The notes beneath the pieces were generated by a model that searched no databases, was not told the DNA's origin, and was given only the letters and a program-made list of their open reading frames with translations. Positions 1,579 through 22,685 of a stretch of 27,662 nt of DNA are shown one piece after another. The stretch is from an uncultured Candidatus Saccharibacteria bacterium (GTDB taxonomy: Bacteria; Patescibacteriota; Dojkabacteria; SC72). The stretch lies in contig CAZCMQ010000003.1 in NCBI GenBank assembly GCA_964500025.1, positions 1 through 27,662 of the forward strand, read 5' to 3'. Within the stretch, counting starts at the first letter, position 1. Each line of letters begins with the position of its first letter. Both the position numbers and the translations under genes were made by a program.

Positions 1579-2283
1579 TTAATTATACACTACCTTTGTT
1601 CTCTGGAGCTTCCCATCCTCAATGCTGACTGCGTCTAATCTCCCGTCATACATAAGGACTCCAAGATATATTTGGGAATCCTCTGGGACTGTTTCCTCTA
1701 TTGCACGTTTGAAAGAAACAAGCTGATATATATCTTGTATAGAAAGATTGAGTCCAGGCTCTTTTATGCCAAATTTGCTTTTGATCTCTTGAGAGATTCT
1801 ATTTGTGAGTGTTTGTGATTTATCTTTCTCTGTAATCTTTGGGTGTGTATGACCAAGTATGTAGATATTTCTTTTATCATTAACTCCGTTGTTGATACTT
1901 TGACCTAATAGTTCTGAGTCAATTTCGACATCTTTGGGTTCAAGCACCTGCCCTTTTCTATATAGCATGTCTATATTGGTAATATTTATTGCTGAATTAG
2001 TTGATGTACCCGTTAACATATATGAGTATTCCAGGGCTGACTCTGGATCATTGATAATTTCTAGATAAACTGAGAGATGCTGCTTAGGAGTGTCTGAGGT
2101 TGTTATTAGATCTCCAGTTTCTTCTATTTTCTCAATTGGAATGGGGATGTTGCTTTTTGACTCAAAATCCAAGAGTGTATAGTCTTTAGTTACTTTATCA
2201 ATCAAATCTGCAAAGCCGCTGTTATTTAGTACTTCTAATGTCTCGTCCTTTGGGTCAAGTAGGTTTTCTTTTTGTTCTGTCAT
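1579..2283 (-). CDS. hypothetical protein, acidic, with a YILGHTHP segment reminiscent of a degenerate JAB/MPN metal-binding strand
   Basis: 234-aa ORF with no recognisable family. The NIYILGHTHPK...S motif resembles the HxHP core of JAMM domains, but the spacing is off by one and the Asp is missing. Confidence 0.45.
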   Translation of the reverse strand: MTEQKENLLDPKDETLEVLNNSGFADLIDKVTKDYTLLDFESKSNIPIPIEKIEETGDLITTSDTPKQHLSVYLEIINDPESALEYSYMLTGTSTNSAINITNIDMLYRKGQVLEPKDVEIDSELLGQSINNGVNDKRNIYILGHTHPKITEKDKSQTLTNRISQEIKSKFGIKEPGLNLSIQDIYQLVSFKRAIEETVPEDSQIYLGVLMYDGRLDAVSIEDGKLQRTKVVYN

Positions 2284-2593: not shown

Positions 2594-3079
2594 TCAGCTA
2601 GTAATTTTGTTAGATCTTTTTACTTTATACCCTTTGCCAAGTGAATTCCATGGCAAATCTGGTTTAAATTCTGGAAAACTCTCTAAAATCCATTGCGCAT
2701 ATGTATTACTGTTAGGACCTAGGTATTTATAAATGTTTTTAAAAGGGTAGTTTGTCGATGATTGAAGAATCATATCTACCATCTGTTTTACATATGAGTA
2801 CTCATCTCCTGTTGCATAACCTCGCAGTTCTGCTTTCCAAGATAGATTTTTTCCCATATGGAATATGTCGCTGCCGATAAAAGGAGGGGAGTAGTCCTTG
2901 GTTACAAATTTTTTCTGAGCAGCTTTAACTAGTGTAATTTCCCATCTGGAAATATCTCCTTTGTTGTTAACTACAAACCAAGGGTGTTTGATGAAGCTGA
3001 AGGGTATTACAGAGTTGGAAGTGAATAGAAATACTTGGTACTTGGAGGGATCTAAAAGATGTTTGTACTCTCTGCGCAT
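2594..3079 (-). CDS. hypothetical protein
   Basis: 161-aa ORF, Trp/Tyr-rich, with no motif I can assign. Co-directional with its neighbours and separated from them by 12-14 bp gaps. Confidence 0.45.
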   Translation of the reverse strand: MRREYKHLLDPSKYQVFLFTSNSVIPFSFIKHPWFVVNNKGDISRWEITLVKAAQKKFVTKDYSPPFIGSDIFHMGKNLSWKAELRGYATGDEYSYVKQMVDMILQSSTNYPFKNIYKYLGPNSNTYAQWILESFPEFKPDLPWNSLGKGYKVKRSNKITS

Positions 3080-3092
3080 AAAGATTATATAA

Positions 3093-3548
3093 TTAACTGC
3101 TTTTCTGTAGGTCTAAAACTTTCTGTGTCGCGAATTCGTCGGCCTCTGTTTCCAAAACCTTTACTTCACTATCCTGCTGAAACCTTTTTAATCTCCCATC
3201 TTTATCTTGTAGAAAATGTTTGTACTCATGATAAATTATAAATGCAAGTTGAAATGGTCTGTTGTCAAGAATATTCATCTTCGTAAACAACTCTCTTCTA
3301 TCTTCCTTTACATCTTCAAGAACATTCTCAATCCCTATTTCTGTGTTTGGACAGGCAAGAATATTTGGTGATACATACCGTATTTCATGTAAGGTCTCGT
3401 CCTCATAGGCTAAGATTGTCATGTCATTTCTAACCTGCTGGTCAGTCGATTTCCAAACTGCAAGCAGTGATGTCGGAATAGGTTTGCTGCCGGTTTCATA
3501 GCTAGGAATAGAAATCGAAATTTCCTGTTGCCTTTTATTCATGACCAC
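3093..3548 (-). CDS. ImmA/IrrE-family (Peptidase_M78-like) zinc metallopeptidase domain protein
   Basis: 151 aa. IIYHEYKHF (HEXXH) is followed 22 residues later by ETEADEFATQKVL. This matches the ImmA/IrrE signature HExxH ... E.EAN.FA..hL, with the third zinc ligand Glu. Confidence 0.6.
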   Translation of the reverse strand: MVMNKRQQEISISIPSYETGSKPIPTSLLAVWKSTDQQVRNDMTILAYEDETLHEIRYVSPNILACPNTEIGIENVLEDVKEDRRELFTKMNILDNRPFQLAFIIYHEYKHFLQDKDGRLKRFQQDSEVKVLETEADEFATQKVLDLQKSS

Positions 3549-3614
3549 ATACTATCATGATAGCGTATTATGGAAAATAGAAACGGCAGATACGAGTCTG
3601 GAATCCAAGAAAAG

Positions 3615-4358
3615 CTAAAGGTATGCTGAAATGGCTGTAAATTTCTTGGTTAAAGTTATCTCCGGAATCTCTGGGTGACTTTTAGATAAACTATTGATTA
3701 TTGCATAGGTTATTAACCTCACTGTATATATAGTATTTTGTATCTCCTCTTCTGTTATGAAAATCTCTTGTCCTTGCTTTATATCTCTGACCGTTTGTTT
3801 ATTTGTGATGTCGACCGTTTTCTCTTCAGTCAAGTTTAGTATTGATGTTTTGACTTCTTGTCCATCAATCATCCCCTGTATTGAGATTAAAATAAGTTTT
3901 AAATCCCTTCGTGCAGAAGAAGCCCTGTGCCGAATATCATTCCTTATGAAAACTAGTTGTTGGCTTGTTGATTTTATTTCATCATCAAAATCGCAGATTT
4001 TATTAAGCAACTTGGTACTATTCTTTATTCCTCTGGCCTCCACCAGAGCTCCTTCATATTCAAGATTGTTTTGTGCAAGACTCGTTTTTAGTGCGAGTAA
4101 CTCCTGCAGAGTTTCTTCAAAGGAATCAATGATGCTCTTGAATGTATTATTGATTTGAGTTTTCCTATCAACATTACTTGTATTAGGTTGCAAGGGTATG
4201 TAGTCTACGACTTCTTTATGTGTTATCGCATTACTAGATAATGACCTAACCAAGGCATTGTGATATGTATCTAAGCTAGTTTCTAGTTTAGACACCACTT
4301 CAATTGTTTTTGTCTGATAATCCATAGCTTTGGAAAAGTTTTCTAAATGGCGGGACAT
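3615..4358 (-). CDS. hypothetical helical protein with an RNxxxH (HEPN-like) motif
   Basis: 247 aa. FIRNDIRHR (R139-N-x3-H144) lies in a predicted helical region. The ORF is flanked by a ~25-bp imperfect direct repeat (3588-3606 and 4359-4380). Confidence 0.45.
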   Translation of the reverse strand: MSRHLENFSKAMDYQTKTIEVVSKLETSLDTYHNALVRSLSSNAITHKEVVDYIPLQPNTSNVDRKTQINNTFKSIIDSFEETLQELLALKTSLAQNNLEYEGALVEARGIKNSTKLLNKICDFDDEIKSTSQQLVFIRNDIRHRASSARRDLKLILISIQGMIDGQEVKTSILNLTEEKTVDITNKQTVRDIKQGQEIFITEEEIQNTIYTVRLITYAIINSLSKSHPEIPEITLTKKFTAISAYL

Positions 4359-4499
4359 ACGAGTCTGGGACCTAATATCCCAAGTGAATTATACAGAAAA
4401 TTAGATAAAAGAGACAGTATAAAAGAGGGAGGAGTATCTTTCTTATGCCATAAATCTGCGTAATGTTAGATCCTCATCACAGCTTTAACGACCAAGATT

Positions 4500-5228
4500 C
4501 TATTTTTCAGGGTAGTCTTTCTGTATCTGGGCTTTTAACCTGTTATTCTCATCCTGCAAGGCGAGTAGATCTTTCTCAAAGGTTTCAATAAATTCTATAG
4601 ATCCTATATCTTTGTCCACTTCATAAAGGAGATTCGTTACTCCTAATATTATATTAGACGCTTGCCATAATGCTGTTTTAACATGGAACTCGTTCTCATA
4701 ATCAGGAAAAGGCATGTGTGCGACCTTTTTTTCGAGTTTAAAATTTCTATGTGCCTCTACAAGGTTTGAATGAGAAGAATTCTCGTTAATTGCGTCTTTC
4801 ATCCTTTTGATTGCATCTGAACCATGGCTAAAGTTATCTGAGAGCCATTGATATTGCTTTTTCCTAAGTTCTTGCGTGGACTTTATTATCCCGGTTTCAT
4901 CTTCTACTACGAAGCCTTCCTTGTCAGGATTGGCAATTGCATATGCAGCACTAGCTGAGGCTTCTAGGACCTGTCTGAGATTCATCATCGCTTGCGTATT
5001 TTGAAGGCGTAATATCGAAAGGACTGCAAGCAAGTGGTGCTTTCTTATCTGTCCCAAGAATGCCATAAATATAAATCTTGAGACATCAACACTGACAATA
5101 AACTGTTGTAGGAAGTTGTAGAAACCAATCGCATGTTGGTAGTGTTCACCGTAACGCTTTTGTGCATCAAGCACCATTAATCTCTCGCTCTCAACGATAT
5201 TTTCAAAAGTATCATCTTTGTACTGCAT
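4500..5228 (-). CDS. hypothetical helical protein
   Basis: 242-aa ORF, co-directional. No assignable motif. Possibly resembles Abi-associated helical domains, but I could not verify that. Confidence 0.45.
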   Translation of the reverse strand: MQYKDDTFENIVESERLMVLDAQKRYGEHYQHAIGFYNFLQQFIVSVDVSRFIFMAFLGQIRKHHLLAVLSILRLQNTQAMMNLRQVLEASASAAYAIANPDKEGFVVEDETGIIKSTQELRKKQYQWLSDNFSHGSDAIKRMKDAINENSSHSNLVEAHRNFKLEKKVAHMPFPDYENEFHVKTALWQASNIILGVTNLLYEVDKDIGSIEFIETFEKDLLALQDENNRLKAQIQKDYPEK

Positions 5229-5360
5229 TCTGGTAAATTACTGCAACATTATATAGAGTATTATAACCAAGTTTGGAGAACTCCTCTATTGGTAGGGTAG
5301 ATGTAGAATAGTCAGAAAGAGCCCAAGAATTCCAGGGCCTAGAAAGCTAGAATCGTAGAA

Positions 5361-5744
5361 TTATTTTATGGTGCTCTCTATTTCCAAATCTATTATGTCT
5401 ATTGATTTCTGCATTGCTTCGCATATTTCCATATACCACATATGGGTTTCATGAACGCTATGCTTCTTTTTGCTAGTAAACTCACTTACCTTCTCTAAAA
5501 CGGATACTGGAAAGGCTGTATTAATTTTGTCTACTAAATCATGTGGATATTTCCCGGATAGCATTGCATCTAATAGCTCACTTTTTACCTTGTTATAGAC
5601 AGATTCCAGTCTAGATCTCTTATCCTTCAGAAAATCTACCTTTAATGTCTTTTTCCATTTTTTGTATTCAATTAACTGTACAATCACTGGGACGATGCTT
5701 GCAATTATTCCACCAACTATAGTTGCTAAGATTGTTTCTGACAT
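5361..5744 (-). CDS. hypothetical membrane-anchored protein (single N-terminal TM)
   Basis: 127 aa. N-terminal TILATIVGGIIASIVPVIVQLI. Its start codon lies 21 bp from the 3' end of tRNA-Asp. Confidence 0.4.
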   Translation of the reverse strand: MSETILATIVGGIIASIVPVIVQLIEYKKWKKTLKVDFLKDKRSRLESVYNKVKSELLDAMLSGKYPHDLVDKINTAFPVSVLEKVSEFTSKKKHSVHETHMWYMEICEAMQKSIDIIDLEIESTIK

Positions 5745-5764
5745 ATAGCGGATTGTTAATTAAA

Positions 5765-5841
5765 TGGCGGAATGGACGGGACTCGAACCCGCAACCTTCG
5801 CAGTGACAGTGCGATGCTCTAACCAATTGAGCTACCACTCC
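5765..5841 (-). tRNA. tRNA-Asp (anticodon GTC), CCA encoded
   Basis: Manual cloverleaf: acceptor GGAGTGG/CCATTCC, D-stem GCTC/GAGC, anticodon stem TCGCA/TGCGA with loop CTGTCAC, T-arm GCGGG-TTCGAGT-CCCGT, discriminator G, then CCA. Confidence 0.9.
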
Positions 5842-7214: not shown

Positions 7215-8321
7215 ATGCCCAAGATAGTAAAACTAGAAAAAAACAACTTAGAGCAAGTATTAAACGAAGCCGTTGAGGTAATTAGAAACGGTGGACTTGT
7301 CGTATATCCATCTGACACGTGCTATGGAATCGCAACAGATGCAACTAATCAAGATGCCGTAGACAGATTGAAAAAATATAAACAATTTAGGGGGCAAAAG
7401 CCAATCTCAGTAAATGTTGCATCAAAAGAAATGGCTTCTGAATATGTAAAAATAAATGAGACAGCACAAAACCTGTATGACAACTACATACCAGGTCCGA
7501 TTACAATAATCTCTGAAAGCCTCGGTAAACTAGCAAATGGGGTCCAATCAGACTGGGGAACAGTAGGAGTAAGAATCCCAGACCATGAGGTTCCAGTTAA
7601 GCTTGCTCAAAAATTTGGAAAGCCGGTAACTGCAACATCTGCAAATGTTTCGTACAAAAGCCTCCCATACAGCATAGAGTCATTATTTAAATACACGCCT
7701 AAGAAAAGTTTGGAACTAATTGATCTAATAATAGATGCAGGAGAACTCCCTAAGAATGTCCCTTCTACTGTTTTGGACACCACCATGAACTCCCTCCAAC
7801 TCTTGCGAGAAGGCAAAATGGAATTTGAAGACGCTGTTAAAAAGTCCAACCTCTACAAAACTGTCACAACACAAACTGCACAGGAAACAATTGAATTTGG
7901 AAAAGAAATAGCACAGTACTTTGCTTCAAAGCATGACAATGGCTCACTCGTTTTTGCATTAAGTGGTGAGCTTGGAGCAGGAAAAACCCAGTTTACCAAA
8001 GGAATTGGAGAGCACCTTTCAGTAGAAGATATGGTTAACTCCCCAACCTACACCATTATCAACGAGTACCGATACAATGACGGAGAGAACGAGAGAACAC
8101 TTGCCCACATGGATACATGGAGAATTGCTGATGTGGAAGAATTCAAAAGATCTGGATTAAAAGAATACTTGGAATCAAGTGATATTGTTGTAATTGAATG
8201 GGCTGACAAATTCTTCCATGAGATTGAAGAGATTGTAAAAGAGTTTGGTGGAGTATTAGTCAAAATTAATTTTAAGTATCTCTCTGAAACAGAAAGGGAG
8301 ATTTCAGTATATGAGTCATAG
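7215..8321 (+). CDS. tsaC-tsaE: fusion of TsaC/YrdC/Sua5-like threonylcarbamoyl-AMP synthase domain (N-term) with TsaE/YjeE P-loop ATPase domain (C-term)
   Basis: N-terminus: GGLVVYPSDTCYGIATDA ... VGVRIPDH (YrdC fold). C-terminus: ALSGELGAGKTQFTKGI ... SPTYTIINEY ... HMDTWRI (TsaE Walker A and SPT motifs). Confidence 0.85.
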   Translation: MPKIVKLEKNNLEQVLNEAVEVIRNGGLVVYPSDTCYGIATDATNQDAVDRLKKYKQFRGQKPISVNVASKEMASEYVKINETAQNLYDNYIPGPITIISESLGKLANGVQSDWGTVGVRIPDHEVPVKLAQKFGKPVTATSANVSYKSLPYSIESLFKYTPKKSLELIDLIIDAGELPKNVPSTVLDTTMNSLQLLREGKMEFEDAVKKSNLYKTVTTQTAQETIEFGKEIAQYFASKHDNGSLVFALSGELGAGKTQFTKGIGEHLSVEDMVNSPTYTIINEYRYNDGENERTLAHMDTWRIADVEEFKRSGLKEYLESSDIVVIEWADKFFHEIEEIVKEFGGVLVKINFKYLSETEREISVYES

Positions 8322-13279: not shown

Positions 13280-15547
13280 ATGGCTCGAAACTTATATTCT
13301 CAAGAACCGGTAGTTATAAACTCAGTATATAAAGATACTCAGTCTTCTCCTACAAAAAAGTATCTTGAAATAGCAACTACTAATGAGAATAAGTTGAAGG
13401 AAATTCGCAGGATTCTGAAGGATTTCGAGATAATTGGAAAGTCTCTAGATATAGAGGAGATACAATCATTAAATTGGTCAAGGGTTGCCTCCGCTAAGGC
13501 AAAAGCAGCATATGAAGCAAATGGGTATAATCCTATTTTAGTAGAAGACACCTCGCTTGAAGTAAAAGGTCTTGATGGCTTCCCTGGAACTTATGTTAAT
13601 GATTTCTTCTCAACCGCTTCTATGAGAAAGGAGGTTGCCCAAAATTGGCTTAATGGAAAAGATAGATCCGCAATTGCTAAAGTAACCCTTGCCATCTTTG
13701 ACGGTAAAGAAGCTTTCATTTTTGAGGGAAATTGCGAAGGTAAAATTTCCGAAACTCCTATGGGTATGAATGGCTTTGGATGGGATGACATCTTTATCCC
13801 AAATGGTCAGCCAAAGGGTGAAAAGAAAACATTTGCACAGATGAATTCTGAGCAAAAGGATAAGTATTCGATGAGAGTGAATGCTTTAAAGAAATTTCTT
13901 AAGAGTCCTCCAGTTTTGAACTACAAAGTTTTTAAACTTCTTGAACCTTTTGACCAAGAGATGCAACGAGTTAGACTAAAGGAATTGAAGGATGAGACAG
14001 CTATTAAGTTCGCGTATACTCTCGAAGCGATCGAGGGTGATAATGAAGCGAATAATCTTTTAACTGCTCCTAACTATTCTGAAGTTTACTTAGAAGAGAA
14101 TGCCTATTTTTCTAGATTTTTGCAAAAGAAAAATAGTAAAAGCATAGGATTAATGCTGACTGATACTGATCGTACACACATAAAGTTGCAGAAAAATGGT
14201 TATCCAGTCCTTTGGCAAATGGGTCCAGAGAGAAGGCACCTTGCCTTGGCAGAAAGGGTTGAATATTTTACTGAAAATCAGAGTAAAGATGCTCATAAGA
14301 TATTGGATGAATTGGAAAATAAAAAAGAAAGTTTCCCAAAGAGGTCTAATAAGAGATCTATTACTATAGATAGATCTTTAGGGTTTGTCGGTGGAGATGT
14401 TGTAACTCGTGCTTCTGCAGTAAAGGAAATTGGTTATAAGAAATTTGCATCAGAAAAAGAAGTGAGCAGAACGAAGGCTTCAAAATCTGGGCTTTTCAAT
14501 ATAATTGGGAAGTATGCAAGAAGTATTTATTCAATTGGTTGTCTTCCTTGGGTTTCTGGTTGGAGAGATGTGATTATTACCGGTGCAGTCGGCCATATGC
14601 CTGTTTTTGTACACAGGAATAATCTCAATGCGATTGATCTTCAGAATCAAATTGATCTGATTAACGATGCGAAAAAAGCTATAAAAAGTTTAGGTCTTTC
14701 AAAAAAAGCTCTTGAGAGGGCGTATAATAATATCGGTGCGGCGGTAGGTACAAATCCTGTCGAGGATAGGAAAAAAGCTAGGAGGCTATATGATGAAGCA
14801 GGTGTGAAATTATTTAGGATATACACAATAAACTCGGATCCTAGGGTTGTTCAAACAGCACGAGCAATTAGAGAAGAACTAGGGGAAGATGTAGAGATAT
14901 TTGTTGGTCAGTTAGTTGATAAAAGACAGGCGTATGAATTAATTGTTGATGATATTAAGATTGACGGTTTGATTATTGGTCACGGTGGTGGAAGAGTCTG
15001 TACATCTGCAACGAATGGCATGGCACTTAGCACACTTGAAGAAATTTATTCGATCGTTACTGATAGTGCATTTAATAATACTAGTGTACTTGTTGAGGGT
15101 GGTTTAGGTAGTCATATTGGAAGTTCACTTATTATGGGAGTTGATGGCATATTGCGCAATGGACAATTTGCAAGCTGTGTTATTGAGCAGGGTGACCTAT
15201 TTTTTGAACATATGAATGGAAAGCCTTGTCAGCCATACCATGGTAGCGCAAGTGCTGCAACTATGATTATTGAGTCATACAATCCTGAGAATGCTAAGGG
15301 ACGATTATTTGCTAGTGGAAGGGCTAAAAATGTAGAAGGTAAGCCTGGCTACATTTATTATGAGGAAAAGGGTAACTCAATGTCGTTCTATGTAAATGAA
15401 TTCAAACACTATGCGGCGAGGACTCTTGCAGATTTAGGTGTTGAAAGTATCTGGGAATTGAGAGAGTTTGTAGCAAATACAGATGAAGAGATATTTAGAG
15501 AGGTTACGCCAGAAGCATCAGTTGTTTCAGGAGCTTGGAGGAACTAG
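13280..15547 (+). CDS. multidomain protein: N-terminal Ham1/RdgB-type non-canonical purine NTP pyrophosphatase (ITPase) domain, an uncharacterised middle region, and a C-terminal IMPDH/GMP-reductase-like TIM barrel with catalytic Cys loop
   Basis: N-terminus: ATTNENKLKE ... VEDTSLEV ... GFPGTYVNDF (ITPase motifs). C-terminus: IGHGGGRVCTSATNGMAL (compare IMPDH VGIGPGSICTTR) ... VLVEGGLGSHIGSSLIMGVDG (compare IADGGI..SGDI.KA.A.GA). 755 aa. Confidence 0.7.
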   Translation: MARNLYSQEPVVINSVYKDTQSSPTKKYLEIATTNENKLKEIRRILKDFEIIGKSLDIEEIQSLNWSRVASAKAKAAYEANGYNPILVEDTSLEVKGLDGFPGTYVNDFFSTASMRKEVAQNWLNGKDRSAIAKVTLAIFDGKEAFIFEGNCEGKISETPMGMNGFGWDDIFIPNGQPKGEKKTFAQMNSEQKDKYSMRVNALKKFLKSPPVLNYKVFKLLEPFDQEMQRVRLKELKDETAIKFAYTLEAIEGDNEANNLLTAPNYSEVYLEENAYFSRFLQKKNSKSIGLMLTDTDRTHIKLQKNGYPVLWQMGPERRHLALAERVEYFTENQSKDAHKILDELENKKESFPKRSNKRSITIDRSLGFVGGDVVTRASAVKEIGYKKFASEKEVSRTKASKSGLFNIIGKYARSIYSIGCLPWVSGWRDVIITGAVGHMPVFVHRNNLNAIDLQNQIDLINDAKKAIKSLGLSKKALERAYNNIGAAVGTNPVEDRKKARRLYDEAGVKLFRIYTINSDPRVVQTARAIREELGEDVEIFVGQLVDKRQAYELIVDDIKIDGLIIGHGGGRVCTSATNGMALSTLEEIYSIVTDSAFNNTSVLVEGGLGSHIGSSLIMGVDGILRNGQFASCVIEQGDLFFEHMNGKPCQPYHGSASAATMIIESYNPENAKGRLFASGRAKNVEGKPGYIYYEEKGNSMSFYVNEFKHYAARTLADLGVESIWELREFVANTDEEIFREVTPEASVVSGAWRN

Positions 15548-21152: not shown

Positions 21153-22685
21153 ATGCAAGAGCAATATCTAAGTCTTGGTAACAAGGATGTCCTAAACGGA
21201 CAATACCTGCTAGCCGTATTCAAAATAGTACCTTATGGTGATGAATCAATAGAAAGTGCTGCAACCGAAGCAGCTGCAGAATCTTCTACTGGATCAAACC
21301 TAAAAGTTTCTTCAGCAACAAACTACTCAATGAATATTGATGCGCTTGTATATGATATAGATAAAGAGAGGAGCCTTGTCTATATAGCATACCCATGGAT
21401 TATGTTTGATAGAGGTGGGAATATTCAAAACATCCTTACCTTCCTTGCTGGAAATGTTTTTGGAATGAGTAACCTTAAAGAGTGTAAGCTTCTTGATGTT
21501 TGGTTCCCACCACAGATGCTTGTGCAGTACGATGGACCAAGTTACACCCTCGATGACATGAGAAGATATCTTGATGTATACGACAGACCAATTCTAGGAA
21601 CAATCATTAAACCTAAAATCGGACTAACTTCAACAGAGTATGCTGAACTTTGCTACGATTTCTGGGTTGGAGGCGGTGATTTTGTAAAAAATGACGAACC
21701 TCAGGCTGATCAGTTCTTTTCTCCATTTGAAAAAATGGTTGATAGTGTAAGAGAGGCAATGGACAAAGCCGAAAAAGAAACAGGACGAACTAAGGTTCAC
21801 TCATTTAATGTTTCTGCAGCAGACTTGGAAACTATGGTTAGGAGAGCAAGGTATGTTGTGCAGACAATGAAGCCTGGTAGTGCATCTCTTTTAATTGATG
21901 GAATCACTGCAGGTTGGAGTGCTGTACAGACACTGAGAAGAAATTTCCCTAATACCTTTATTCACTTCCACAGGGCAGGGCATGGTGGATTTACAAGAAA
22001 AGAAAACCCAATAGGATATACAGTTCCCGTAATGACGAAGTTTGCCAGACTTGCCGGTGCATCGGGTGTGCATACTGGTACAGCGGGTGTTGGAAAAATG
22101 TCAGGAGATGCCCATGAGGATATCACAGCAGCACATCAGGCCCTTAGATTCTGTGCAGATGGATGGTATTTTAGGCAAGTATGGTCAGAAGTTCCATCAA
22201 GAGACACAAATATTCAGGAAATGATTTCTAAAGAGAAAAAAGTTTGGGAGATGGGTGCTAGAGAACTTGCTAAAATGAGAAGGACTAAAGCTCTTAGTGC
22301 AGAGGGGCTTGAAGAACATACTAACTGGAGAGTAATTCCAAAAATGTCTCCAATTGTTTCTGGTGGGATCAACCCAGTATTACTTCCAGAGTTCTTAGAT
22401 GTAATGAAATCAATTGACTTTATAATTACAATGGGTGCTGGGGTTCACTCACACCCAATGGGAACTACTTCTGGTGTGAAAGCAGTTTTACAAGCGTATG
22501 AGGCATGGTTGGAAAACGTACCACTTGAGGAGTTTGCACGTGATAAAGAGGAATTGAGAGTTGCGGTTGAATTTTACAACAAGTACGGAACTCAAGCTCA
22601 TAAAATGAAAAGTGATAGTTCTCAGGTAGAAAATCAAAACACTAGTGGTGAGGTTACTTCACCAATTGAAGATCCTACGCTTTAG
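21153..22685 (+). CDS. rbcL: ribulose-1,5-bisphosphate carboxylase/oxygenase large subunit, form II/III-like (as described in CPR bacteria and archaea)
   Basis: Alignable with RbcL throughout: AAESSTGS, GNVFG, IIKPKIGLTSTEY (K175/K177), GGGDFVKNDE (K201 carbamate site plus D/E Mg ligands), HFHRAGH (H294), HTGTAGVGKMSGD (K334), PIVSGGINP (S379-G-G), MGAGVHSHPMGT (G403/G404). It has a ~25-aa insertion before the SGG loop and a ~30-aa C-terminal tail. Confidence 0.9.
   Translation: MQEQYLSLGNKDVLNGQYLLAVFKIVPYGDESIESAATEAAAESSTGSNLKVSSATNYSMNIDALVYDIDKERSLVYIAYPWIMFDRGGNIQNILTFLAGNVFGMSNLKECKLLDVWFPPQMLVQYDGPSYTLDDMRRYLDVYDRPILGTIIKPKIGLTSTEYAELCYDFWVGGGDFVKNDEPQADQFFSPFEKMVDSVREAMDKAEKETGRTKVHSFNVSAADLETMVRRARYVVQTMKPGSASLLIDGITAGWSAVQTLRRNFPNTFIHFHRAGHGGFTRKENPIGYTVPVMTKFARLAGASGVHTGTAGVGKMSGDAHEDITAAHQALRFCADGWYFRQVWSEVPSRDTNIQEMISKEKKVWEMGARELAKMRRTKALSAEGLEEHTNWRVIPKMSPIVSGGINPVLLPEFLDVMKSIDFIITMGAGVHSHPMGTTSGVKAVLQAYEAWLENVPLEEFARDKEELRVAVEFYNKYGTQAHKMKSDSSQVENQNTSGEVTSPIEDPTL

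Follow-up and report, generated by a model that had tools for sequence, protein, structure and literature searches.

Contig CAZCMQ010000003.1 of an uncultured Candidatus Saccharibacteria bacterium, whose 27,662 nucleotides (nt) we analysed as a whole and refer to as the window, carries a small gene for a putative mini-gluzincin (hereafter the focal gene). In a preliminary description its product had been regarded as a stand-alone zinc peptidase of the ImmA/IrrE type (Peptidase_M78) that lacks a visible helix-turn-helix (HTH) partner. The open reading frame (ORF) was confirmed at 3093..3548 (-), but while the reading frame of that description is real, the start of the gene needed to be moved. 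Since the NCBI product comprises 149 amino acids (aa) and all three homologues described below begin at the equivalent of the ATG at 3542, the gene extends over 3093..3542 (-), including the stop codon. The likely start is this ATG (MNK...), which lies two codons inside the GTG at 3548; the latter is an unlikely start codon. In the 149-aa numbering the motif HEYKH occupies residues 105-109 (codons at 3216..3230 (-)) and ETEADEFA occupies residues 131-138 (3129..3152 (-)), with E131 sitting 22 residues past H109, exactly as had been noted before. HEYKH aligns to the HExxH motif of M78 and Lit proteins and falls on a predicted active-site helix (residues 95-114), and ETEADEFA falls on a predicted glutamate helix (residues 124-148). 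H105 and H109 are presumed to be metal ligands, with E106 as the presumed general base and E131 as the presumed third metal ligand. Scanning the six translated frames of the window for the underlying pattern, HE..H-x(15-30)-E.[ED]A[DN]..A, gave a single occurrence, whereas 200 residue shuffles gave none. The protein has no hydrophobic segment, and no signal peptide is visible at its N-terminus.

A word-indexed search of 5.8 billion protein clusters returned the focal protein itself as the sole close match. Three full-length relatives of 147-159 aa emerged from an exhaustive phmmer search of 1.84 billion representatives: P0002 (55% identity, E 5e-43; locus L001), P0003 (~31% identity, E 3e-19; locus L003) and P0004 (~24% identity, E 4e-08; locus L004). 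P0002 comes from Candidatus Dojkabacteria, where its annotation is that of a hypothetical protein. A profile search with the alignment of the four family members (A1) yielded no further member, and no relatives were found by tblastn against phage and plasmid collections or by a pattern scan of viral contigs. Full-length conservation in three further genomes (55, 31 and 24% identity) establishes that the focal ORF truly encodes a protein. That the ORF arose by chance or its motif by coincidence might have been suspected from the lack of any family annotation and from the word-indexed search that returned the focal protein alone. The homologues in three genomes, the confident structural model (see below), the empty result of the 200 shuffles and the conserved motif residues leave this explanation with a practically negligible probability; the full-length homologues, conserved residues and model effectively refute the chance-ORF reading.

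Within the motifs E106, H109, E131, A134 and A138 are invariant in A1, so that the conservation anticipated for HExxH and E.EA..FA largely held. It did not hold for H105, which is replaced by Asn in P0002, nor for F137, which is Tyr in two family members. The N-terminal part has invariant residues of its own, namely Y15, E16, P21, P23, E53, P59, P65 and N66.

When AlphaFold2 was given the single sequence, the predicted local distance difference test score (pLDDT) was 36, and a confident model could be obtained only with the four-sequence alignment (pLDDT 88.5, predicted template modelling score 0.84; the five models ranged from 85.8 to 88.5). The model has strands at residues 42-46, 55-57 and 61-64, followed by helices at 68-81 and 83-88. 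Its C-terminal part consists of the long helix 95-114, which bears HExxH, a short hairpin and the helix 124-148, which bears E131. As modelled, the protein would thus have the gluzincin layout in the sense of MEROPS clan MA(E), i.e. HExxH on an active-site helix and a Glu ligand on the following helix. Foldseek searches against PDB and BFVD gave nothing significant; the best viral match had an E value of 0.046, and PprI/IrrE (PprI with E 3.3), BlaR1 and selecase are found among the noise. PDB sequence searches with the focal protein and with the family profile likewise returned noise only. Since Foldseek found no significant match despite the confidently predicted layout, the family appears to represent a minimal gluzincin fold without a close solved relative. 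The same layout is known from other minimal scaffolds, such as the catalytic cores of M48 and M56 proteases and selecase, but M48 and M56 proteases reside in the membrane, and a hydrophobic segment is absent from the focal protein. The combination of an active-site helix and a glutamate helix also recurs in the C-terminal metalloprotease domain of ArdC (PDB 6SNA), whose nearest structural neighbours are Spartan and IrrE (PMC7213743). ArdC, however, is fused to a single-stranded DNA-binding domain, and with 14% identity to the focal protein no relationship was detected at the sequence level.

To which peptidase family the protein belongs is less obvious than its motif implies. The preliminary description had proposed a HMMER comparison with Peptidase_M78 (PF06114), and this comparison failed to support the assignment: the focal protein matched nothing in Pfam at E<=1 or E<=10, and no family member matched PF06114, even at the looser threshold. 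The gathering score of PF06114 is 22 bits, and an HTH_3-M78 protein encoded at locus L013, which served as a positive control, reached 26.2 bits. The NCBIfam model for Lit (NF007238) matches three family members out of four over one and the same stretch (model positions 162-207 of 309; E 1.2e-5 to 7e-3), but with scores of 15-25 bits against a cut-off of 274; for the focal protein the score is 24.7 bits over 43 of 309 positions. PF10463 (Peptidase_U49) was not reported for the focal protein by hmmscan. A precomputed PF10463 tag on the focal protein is also found on many plain M78 proteins; therefore this tag reflects a cross-match on the shared core and is no evidence of Lit membership. DUF3920 (PF13058) is matched by P0003 alone (24.6 bits, model positions 78-122, gathering cut-off 27.3) and not by the focal protein or the two other members.

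Outgroups were obtained by a back-translated pattern scan of species-representative genomes, which delivered two partial relatives. At L013:6974-8411 a gene for a HigB-like toxin is followed by one for a 365-aa fusion of HTH_3 and Peptidase_M78, the core of which (HEIKH...LETEADDFA) is near-identical to the focal motif. Database members of this subfamily are tagged PF06114, PF10463 or both, i.e. the two models cross-match on the shared core. The second relative (L012) is a longer protein of Christensenellaceae with an M78 match below threshold (19.5 bits); it shares 34% identity with the focal protein over 96 aa (BLASTP) and reaches 93.9% in hhalign. We aligned 18 sequences of the L013-type M78 domain (A2) and five Lit sequences from Escherichia coli e14 and plasmids (A3) and compared these profiles with A1 by hhalign. 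A1 and A2 matched over 56 columns, ending at residue 143 (94.5%, E 8e-8), A1 and A3 over 42 columns, with family columns 98-144 aligned to Lit 152-193 (82.3%, E 1e-5), and A2 and A3 over 40 columns (88.8%, E 2.5e-6). By these comparisons the three groups appear to be related about equally, and only via the HExxH helix and the helix with E-x-E-A-D-x-[FH]-A. The first Glu of E-x-E-A-D is the invariant Glu in all three alignments (E131 in A1, E99 in A2 and E181 in A3), but its distance from the second His is 22 residues in A1, 26 in A2 and 17 in A3. The first 87 residues of the focal protein resemble nothing, and as the chain ends 11 residues past A138, everything that follows the Glu helix in the M78 domain is missing. 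Of the supposed ImmA/IrrE-type signature, the zincin-type character and the homology of the core to M78 are thus retained, but the signature is equally present in Lit/U49 and the M78 domain is incomplete. As judged from sequence, Peptidase_M78, Lit (U49) and DUF3920 have a sister lineage in this family, which belongs to none of them.

The likeness to M78 proteins (ImmA, IrrE/PprI, CapP, Rir; COG2856) nevertheless deserves consideration, as these likewise carry HExxH on one helix and E-x-E-A-[DN]-x-F-A on a glutamate helix behind it, and small stand-alone members exist among them as well. M78 genes often reside on mobile elements beside tRNA attachment sites, e.g. on ICEBs1. The focal protein differs from M78 in lacking LLxP as well as the helices at the end of the domain (roughly the final 35 model positions; 35-70 more in the model or A2), in having 104 residues without detectable similarity ahead of HExxH, compared with about 46 in the Pfam model, and in its His-to-Glu spacing of 22 instead of 26-27. 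Moreover, neither an XRE partner nor an XRE fusion was found here. Pfam HTH families were absent from the focal protein, from the flanking ORFs and from the 27 other window ORFs scanned, which bears out the missing partner of the preliminary description, and the same was true within 8 kb of the homologues at L001, L003 and L004. It is conceivable that the focal protein is a true ImmA/IrrE-type anti-repressor protease whose XRE repressor acts in trans or has been lost, the gene being the remnant of an int-immA-immR module of a decayed integrative and conjugative element or prophage at a tRNA gene. The best profile-profile match is indeed the HTH_3-M78 subfamily, E-x-E-A-D-x-F-A is the typical M78 form, ImmA (169 aa) and Rir (122 aa) show that M78 proteins can be small (PMC12828697), and a tRNA-proximal site with att-like repeats (att, attachment site; see below) would suit the end of an integrated element. 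Yet Pfam M78 matches no member, the region after the Glu helix is missing, and no HTH gene was found within 8 kb in the four contexts or in the scanned ORFs of the 27.6-kb window. In addition, no integrase gene is nearby, save an rve gene 2.4 kb off in L004. We therefore consider this scenario unlikely.

Lit, the U49 protease of prophage e14, shares the HExxH...E-x-E-A-D core with the family. It is likewise a solo gene without a partner, and it lies on an integrated element, near the end. However, it is a 297-aa protein with a 202-position domain, only 42 columns of which can be aligned with the 149-aa focal protein; its His-to-Glu spacing is 17, and the Lit invariants W72, W126, P133, H232-P233 and R238 have no counterpart in the focal family. 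DUF3920 is similar to the family in being a small domain (~126 positions) with its metal-binding core near the C-terminus, although the DUF3920 match of P0003 spans only the C-terminal 45 residues. The L013 M78 protein also matches DUF3920 weakly, and by these matches DUF3920 seems to belong to the same assemblage as M78.

The characterised relatives, ImmA, IrrE and Lit, are regulatory proteases with one substrate each. ImmR is cleaved by ImmA and DdrO by IrrE (PMC12828697), and Lit is a latent site-specific protease that acts in trans on EF-Tu, which it cleaves when the T4 Gol peptide is bound (PMC3014915). Rir, on the other hand, blocks its repressor, and cleavage could not be shown despite its intact motif (PMC12828697). 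This precedent has to be considered together with P0002 (L001:8001-8450), the closest homologue of the focal protein, in which the first metal-binding His is replaced by Asn (NEHCH). Its sequence is identical in both assemblies that carry it, a metagenome-assembled genome from NCBI and a Logan run, and its metal site may be inactive or altered. One might thus propose that the family represents a non-catalytic pseudo-peptidase with a zincin fold that works by binding, as suggested for Rir. We regard this as improbable, as E106, H109 and E131 are invariant across 24-55% identity, which would be hard to explain without a metal site, and three of the four members retain the full HExxH.

On the same strand as the focal gene follow genes for a DUF3750 protein, a 92-aa membrane protein, a 234-aa ORF product and an M20 peptidase, with gaps of 13, 11, 20 and 3 nt. 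The DUF3750 protein (58.5 bits) is encoded by ORF 2594-3079 (-), 13 nt downstream of the focal gene, and reads GPNSNTY. DUF3750 has been described as a papain-like fold in which the catalytic Cys is replaced by Ser (PMC10318531). In sequence searches of PDB no significant match emerged for the DUF3750 ORF or the 234-aa ORF. The latter (1579-2283 (-)) is without a family match; inspected by eye, its E-x-x-x-x-L-T-G ... G-H-T-H-P ... S-I-Q-D recalls the metal motif of JAB/MPN+ proteins, with an unusually long spacer. From the tight arrangement of the five genes on one strand, the papain-like neighbour with Ser for Cys and the M20 assignment, a local peptidase operon that processes peptides or cell-wall fragments could be deduced. 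Two findings speak against it and render it very unlikely: none of these genes accompanies the three homologues, and in four of them, i.e. the focal gene and those for the DUF3750 protein, the 234-aa product and the M20 peptidase, a separate -10-like box immediately precedes the ATG.

This latter feature relates to gene expression in the window at large. An extended -10-like element, TGnTAGTAT (3549..3557 (-)), ends 6 nt before the focal ATG and would constitute an own promoter giving rise to a leaderless or near-leaderless mRNA. A TAnnnT hexamer, often in the form TGnTAnnnT, ends 4-10 nt before the start in 14 of 29 window genes (background 0.145), and Shine-Dalgarno-like sequences were detected in just three of the 29, so the source genome seems to use mostly leaderless mRNAs. 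Given the boxes before individual ATGs and a genome that looks largely leaderless, tight spacing does not imply an operon. Upstream of the focal gene there is a stretch ATAGTATGT.G.CATG, which also occurs upstream of the 31%-identical homologue at L003; TGATATTAT is located upstream of the L001 homologue. The -10-like element is overlapped by a perfect 12-bp palindrome, CTATCATGATAG (3552..3563), which was found in the window alone and has a partly similar counterpart at L001 (TCATGTGATA). This palindrome could be an operator.

The four family neighbourhoods are entirely different. P0002 is encoded downstream of a sortase gene (L001), P0003 between a tRNA and a convergent gene for a HAD hydrolase (L003), and P0004 after an MNT/truncated-HepT pair and ahead of a DUF1295 gene (L004). 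When all window neighbours were compared with the homologue loci by tblastn, the focal gene was the only match, and a survey for conserved partners, as had been proposed at the outset, found none in the four contexts. The earlier idea that the protease might control the product of ORF 2594-3079 or ORF 3615-4358 consequently lacks comparative support, because neither neighbour recurs beside the three homologues.

A tRNA gene was found upstream of the family gene in three of four cases (the window, L003 and L004). In the window, tRNA-Asp(GTC) lies 2.2 kb upstream of the focal gene (5765..5841 (-); ARAGORN and Rfam); on the entire window Rfam reported three tRNAs and nothing else. An ungapped identity scan with the 29-nt 3' end of tRNA-Asp (5761-5789) identified a degenerate copy (21/29) at 4344..4372 (-). 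Among the non-self matches on the two strands of the window this copy ranks first; it exceeds the maximum of 19 in 100 shuffles and beats the matches to other tRNAs. The copy suggests an att remnant that would delimit an old 1.4-kb islet (4373-5760) between the tRNA and the focal gene. The putative islet contains ORFs 5361-5744 and 4500-5228. A strict local alignment for att repeats around the focal gene yielded only 9-10 nt, i.e. chance level.

The arrangement at L003 is much clearer. P0003 starts 45 nt past tRNA-Ser(GCT) (region L003:7865-8514) and is the sole gene of a 559-bp segment. This segment is enclosed by a perfect direct repeat of 14 nt from the tRNA 3' end, TCCCGCCCTCTCCG, which is the sole repeated 14-mer in the 16.4-kb locus. 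From its sequence, the segment looks like the typical trace of integration next to a tRNA, without an integrase. In a metagenome search for the empty L003 site the sole match was an unrelated high-GC contig (L019), which at L019:1043-1066 shares 31 nt with the L003 tRNA-Ser 3' end plus 8 nt of flank beyond the repeat; this segment may represent a tRNA-like 3' structure. ARAGORN calls no tRNA there, and the segment is enclosed by an inverted repeat, GGCCAGAGC/GCTCTGGCC. At L004, P0004 is located 685 nt downstream of tRNA-Pro, and at L004:7242-7912 tRNA-Pro, the MNT nucleotidyltransferase gene and a HepT fragment of 35 aa follow one another, directly ahead of P0004. In this variable region close to the tRNA, MNT and HepT look like the remains of a toxin-antitoxin pair; recA and a gene for an rve integrase are located just upstream. 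No direct repeats flanking the homologues were found at L001 and L004.

Taken together, we favour a reading in which the focal gene encodes an autonomous, mobile, stand-alone cytoplasmic mini-gluzincin acting in trans, and we consider its chances to be about even. The protein would combine the N-terminal beta/alpha subdomain with the active-site helix H105-E106-x-x-H109 and the glutamate helix bearing E131. Zn2+ or Mn2+ would be held by H105, H109 and E131, and a water molecule would be activated by E106. The target might be one specific protein, either the product of another locus in the genome or one introduced by an invader, which would be cut, or only bound as in the case of Rir; the NEHCH motif in P0002 and the Rir precedent make a binding-only role conceivable. 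A role in conflict or stress signalling may be inferred. Rather than being half of a protease/repressor pair, the gene would act as an autonomous single-gene cassette, as it has its own presumed promoter abutting the ATG, no conserved neighbour and a location in tRNA-proximal variable DNA. As a solo gene with its own putative promoter in such variable DNA, it would accordingly resemble Lit more than ImmA/ImmR in its organisation.

Several observations weigh against the mobile, trans-acting protease that we favour. PADLOC and PHROGs delivered weak motif matches only and no significant defence or phage assignment, and the homology to known proteases is limited to ~42-56 residues. The substitution in P0002 means that canonical metal binding is not family-wide, and the absence of a shared neighbour rests on four members, which is a small sample. 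In the window, the focal gene lies outside the putative islet, beyond the att-like copy at 4344-4372, so that its link to the tRNA is indirect. Another copy of the tRNA end, which lies at 3577-3605 (35 nt ahead of the focal ATG) and has CCAGACTCGTAT in common with 4344-4372, is at chance level. Finally, no tRNA is present within 8 kb of P0002 at L001.

A bolder version of the mobile-cassette reading would hold that the family constitutes a minimal, self-contained protease of the Lit type for immunity or conflict in bacteria of the Candidate Phyla Radiation (CPR). A single gene of 0.45 kb with a leaderless promoter of its own, it would travel as the sole cargo of ~0.56-kb integrase-less tRNA islets mobilised in trans and, when triggered by an invader, its product would cleave a core host or phage protein. 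We regard this as a long shot.

The remaining content of the window is of interest with respect to the source organism. A fusion of TsaC (Sua5/YrdC) and TsaE is encoded at 7215-8321, a fusion of a Ham1-like nucleoside triphosphate pyrophosphatase with an inosine monophosphate dehydrogenase/guanosine monophosphate reductase at 13280-15547, and a RuBisCO large subunit at 21153-22685. Two window ORFs of 247 and 242 aa proved not to be paralogues of each other. The gene content and the near-absence of Shine-Dalgarno sequences fit a reduced chromosome of the CPR/Patescibacteria.

The family is very rare, and its recognition holds no major surprise. It does call for caution in annotation, as the motif alone does not identify M78 and the precomputed PF10463 and PF06114 tags cross-match. 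If the assignment is correct, the ImmA/IrrE-Lit core HExxH...E-x-E-A-D occurs in addition as an independent protein of 149 aa, which differs in its N-terminal subdomain and has no repressor partner, and the family would be a fourth small lineage of the assemblage beside M78, U49 and DUF3920. Thereby it would offer a minimal scaffold for asking what sets substrate choice in single-target regulatory proteases. Should it prove to be a Lit-like immune protease, the gene would be the smallest stand-alone protease defence gene known and among the few defence functions assigned in Patescibacteria. The tRNA-flanked single-gene islet at L003, moreover, hints at the movement of small accessory genes in reduced CPR genomes.

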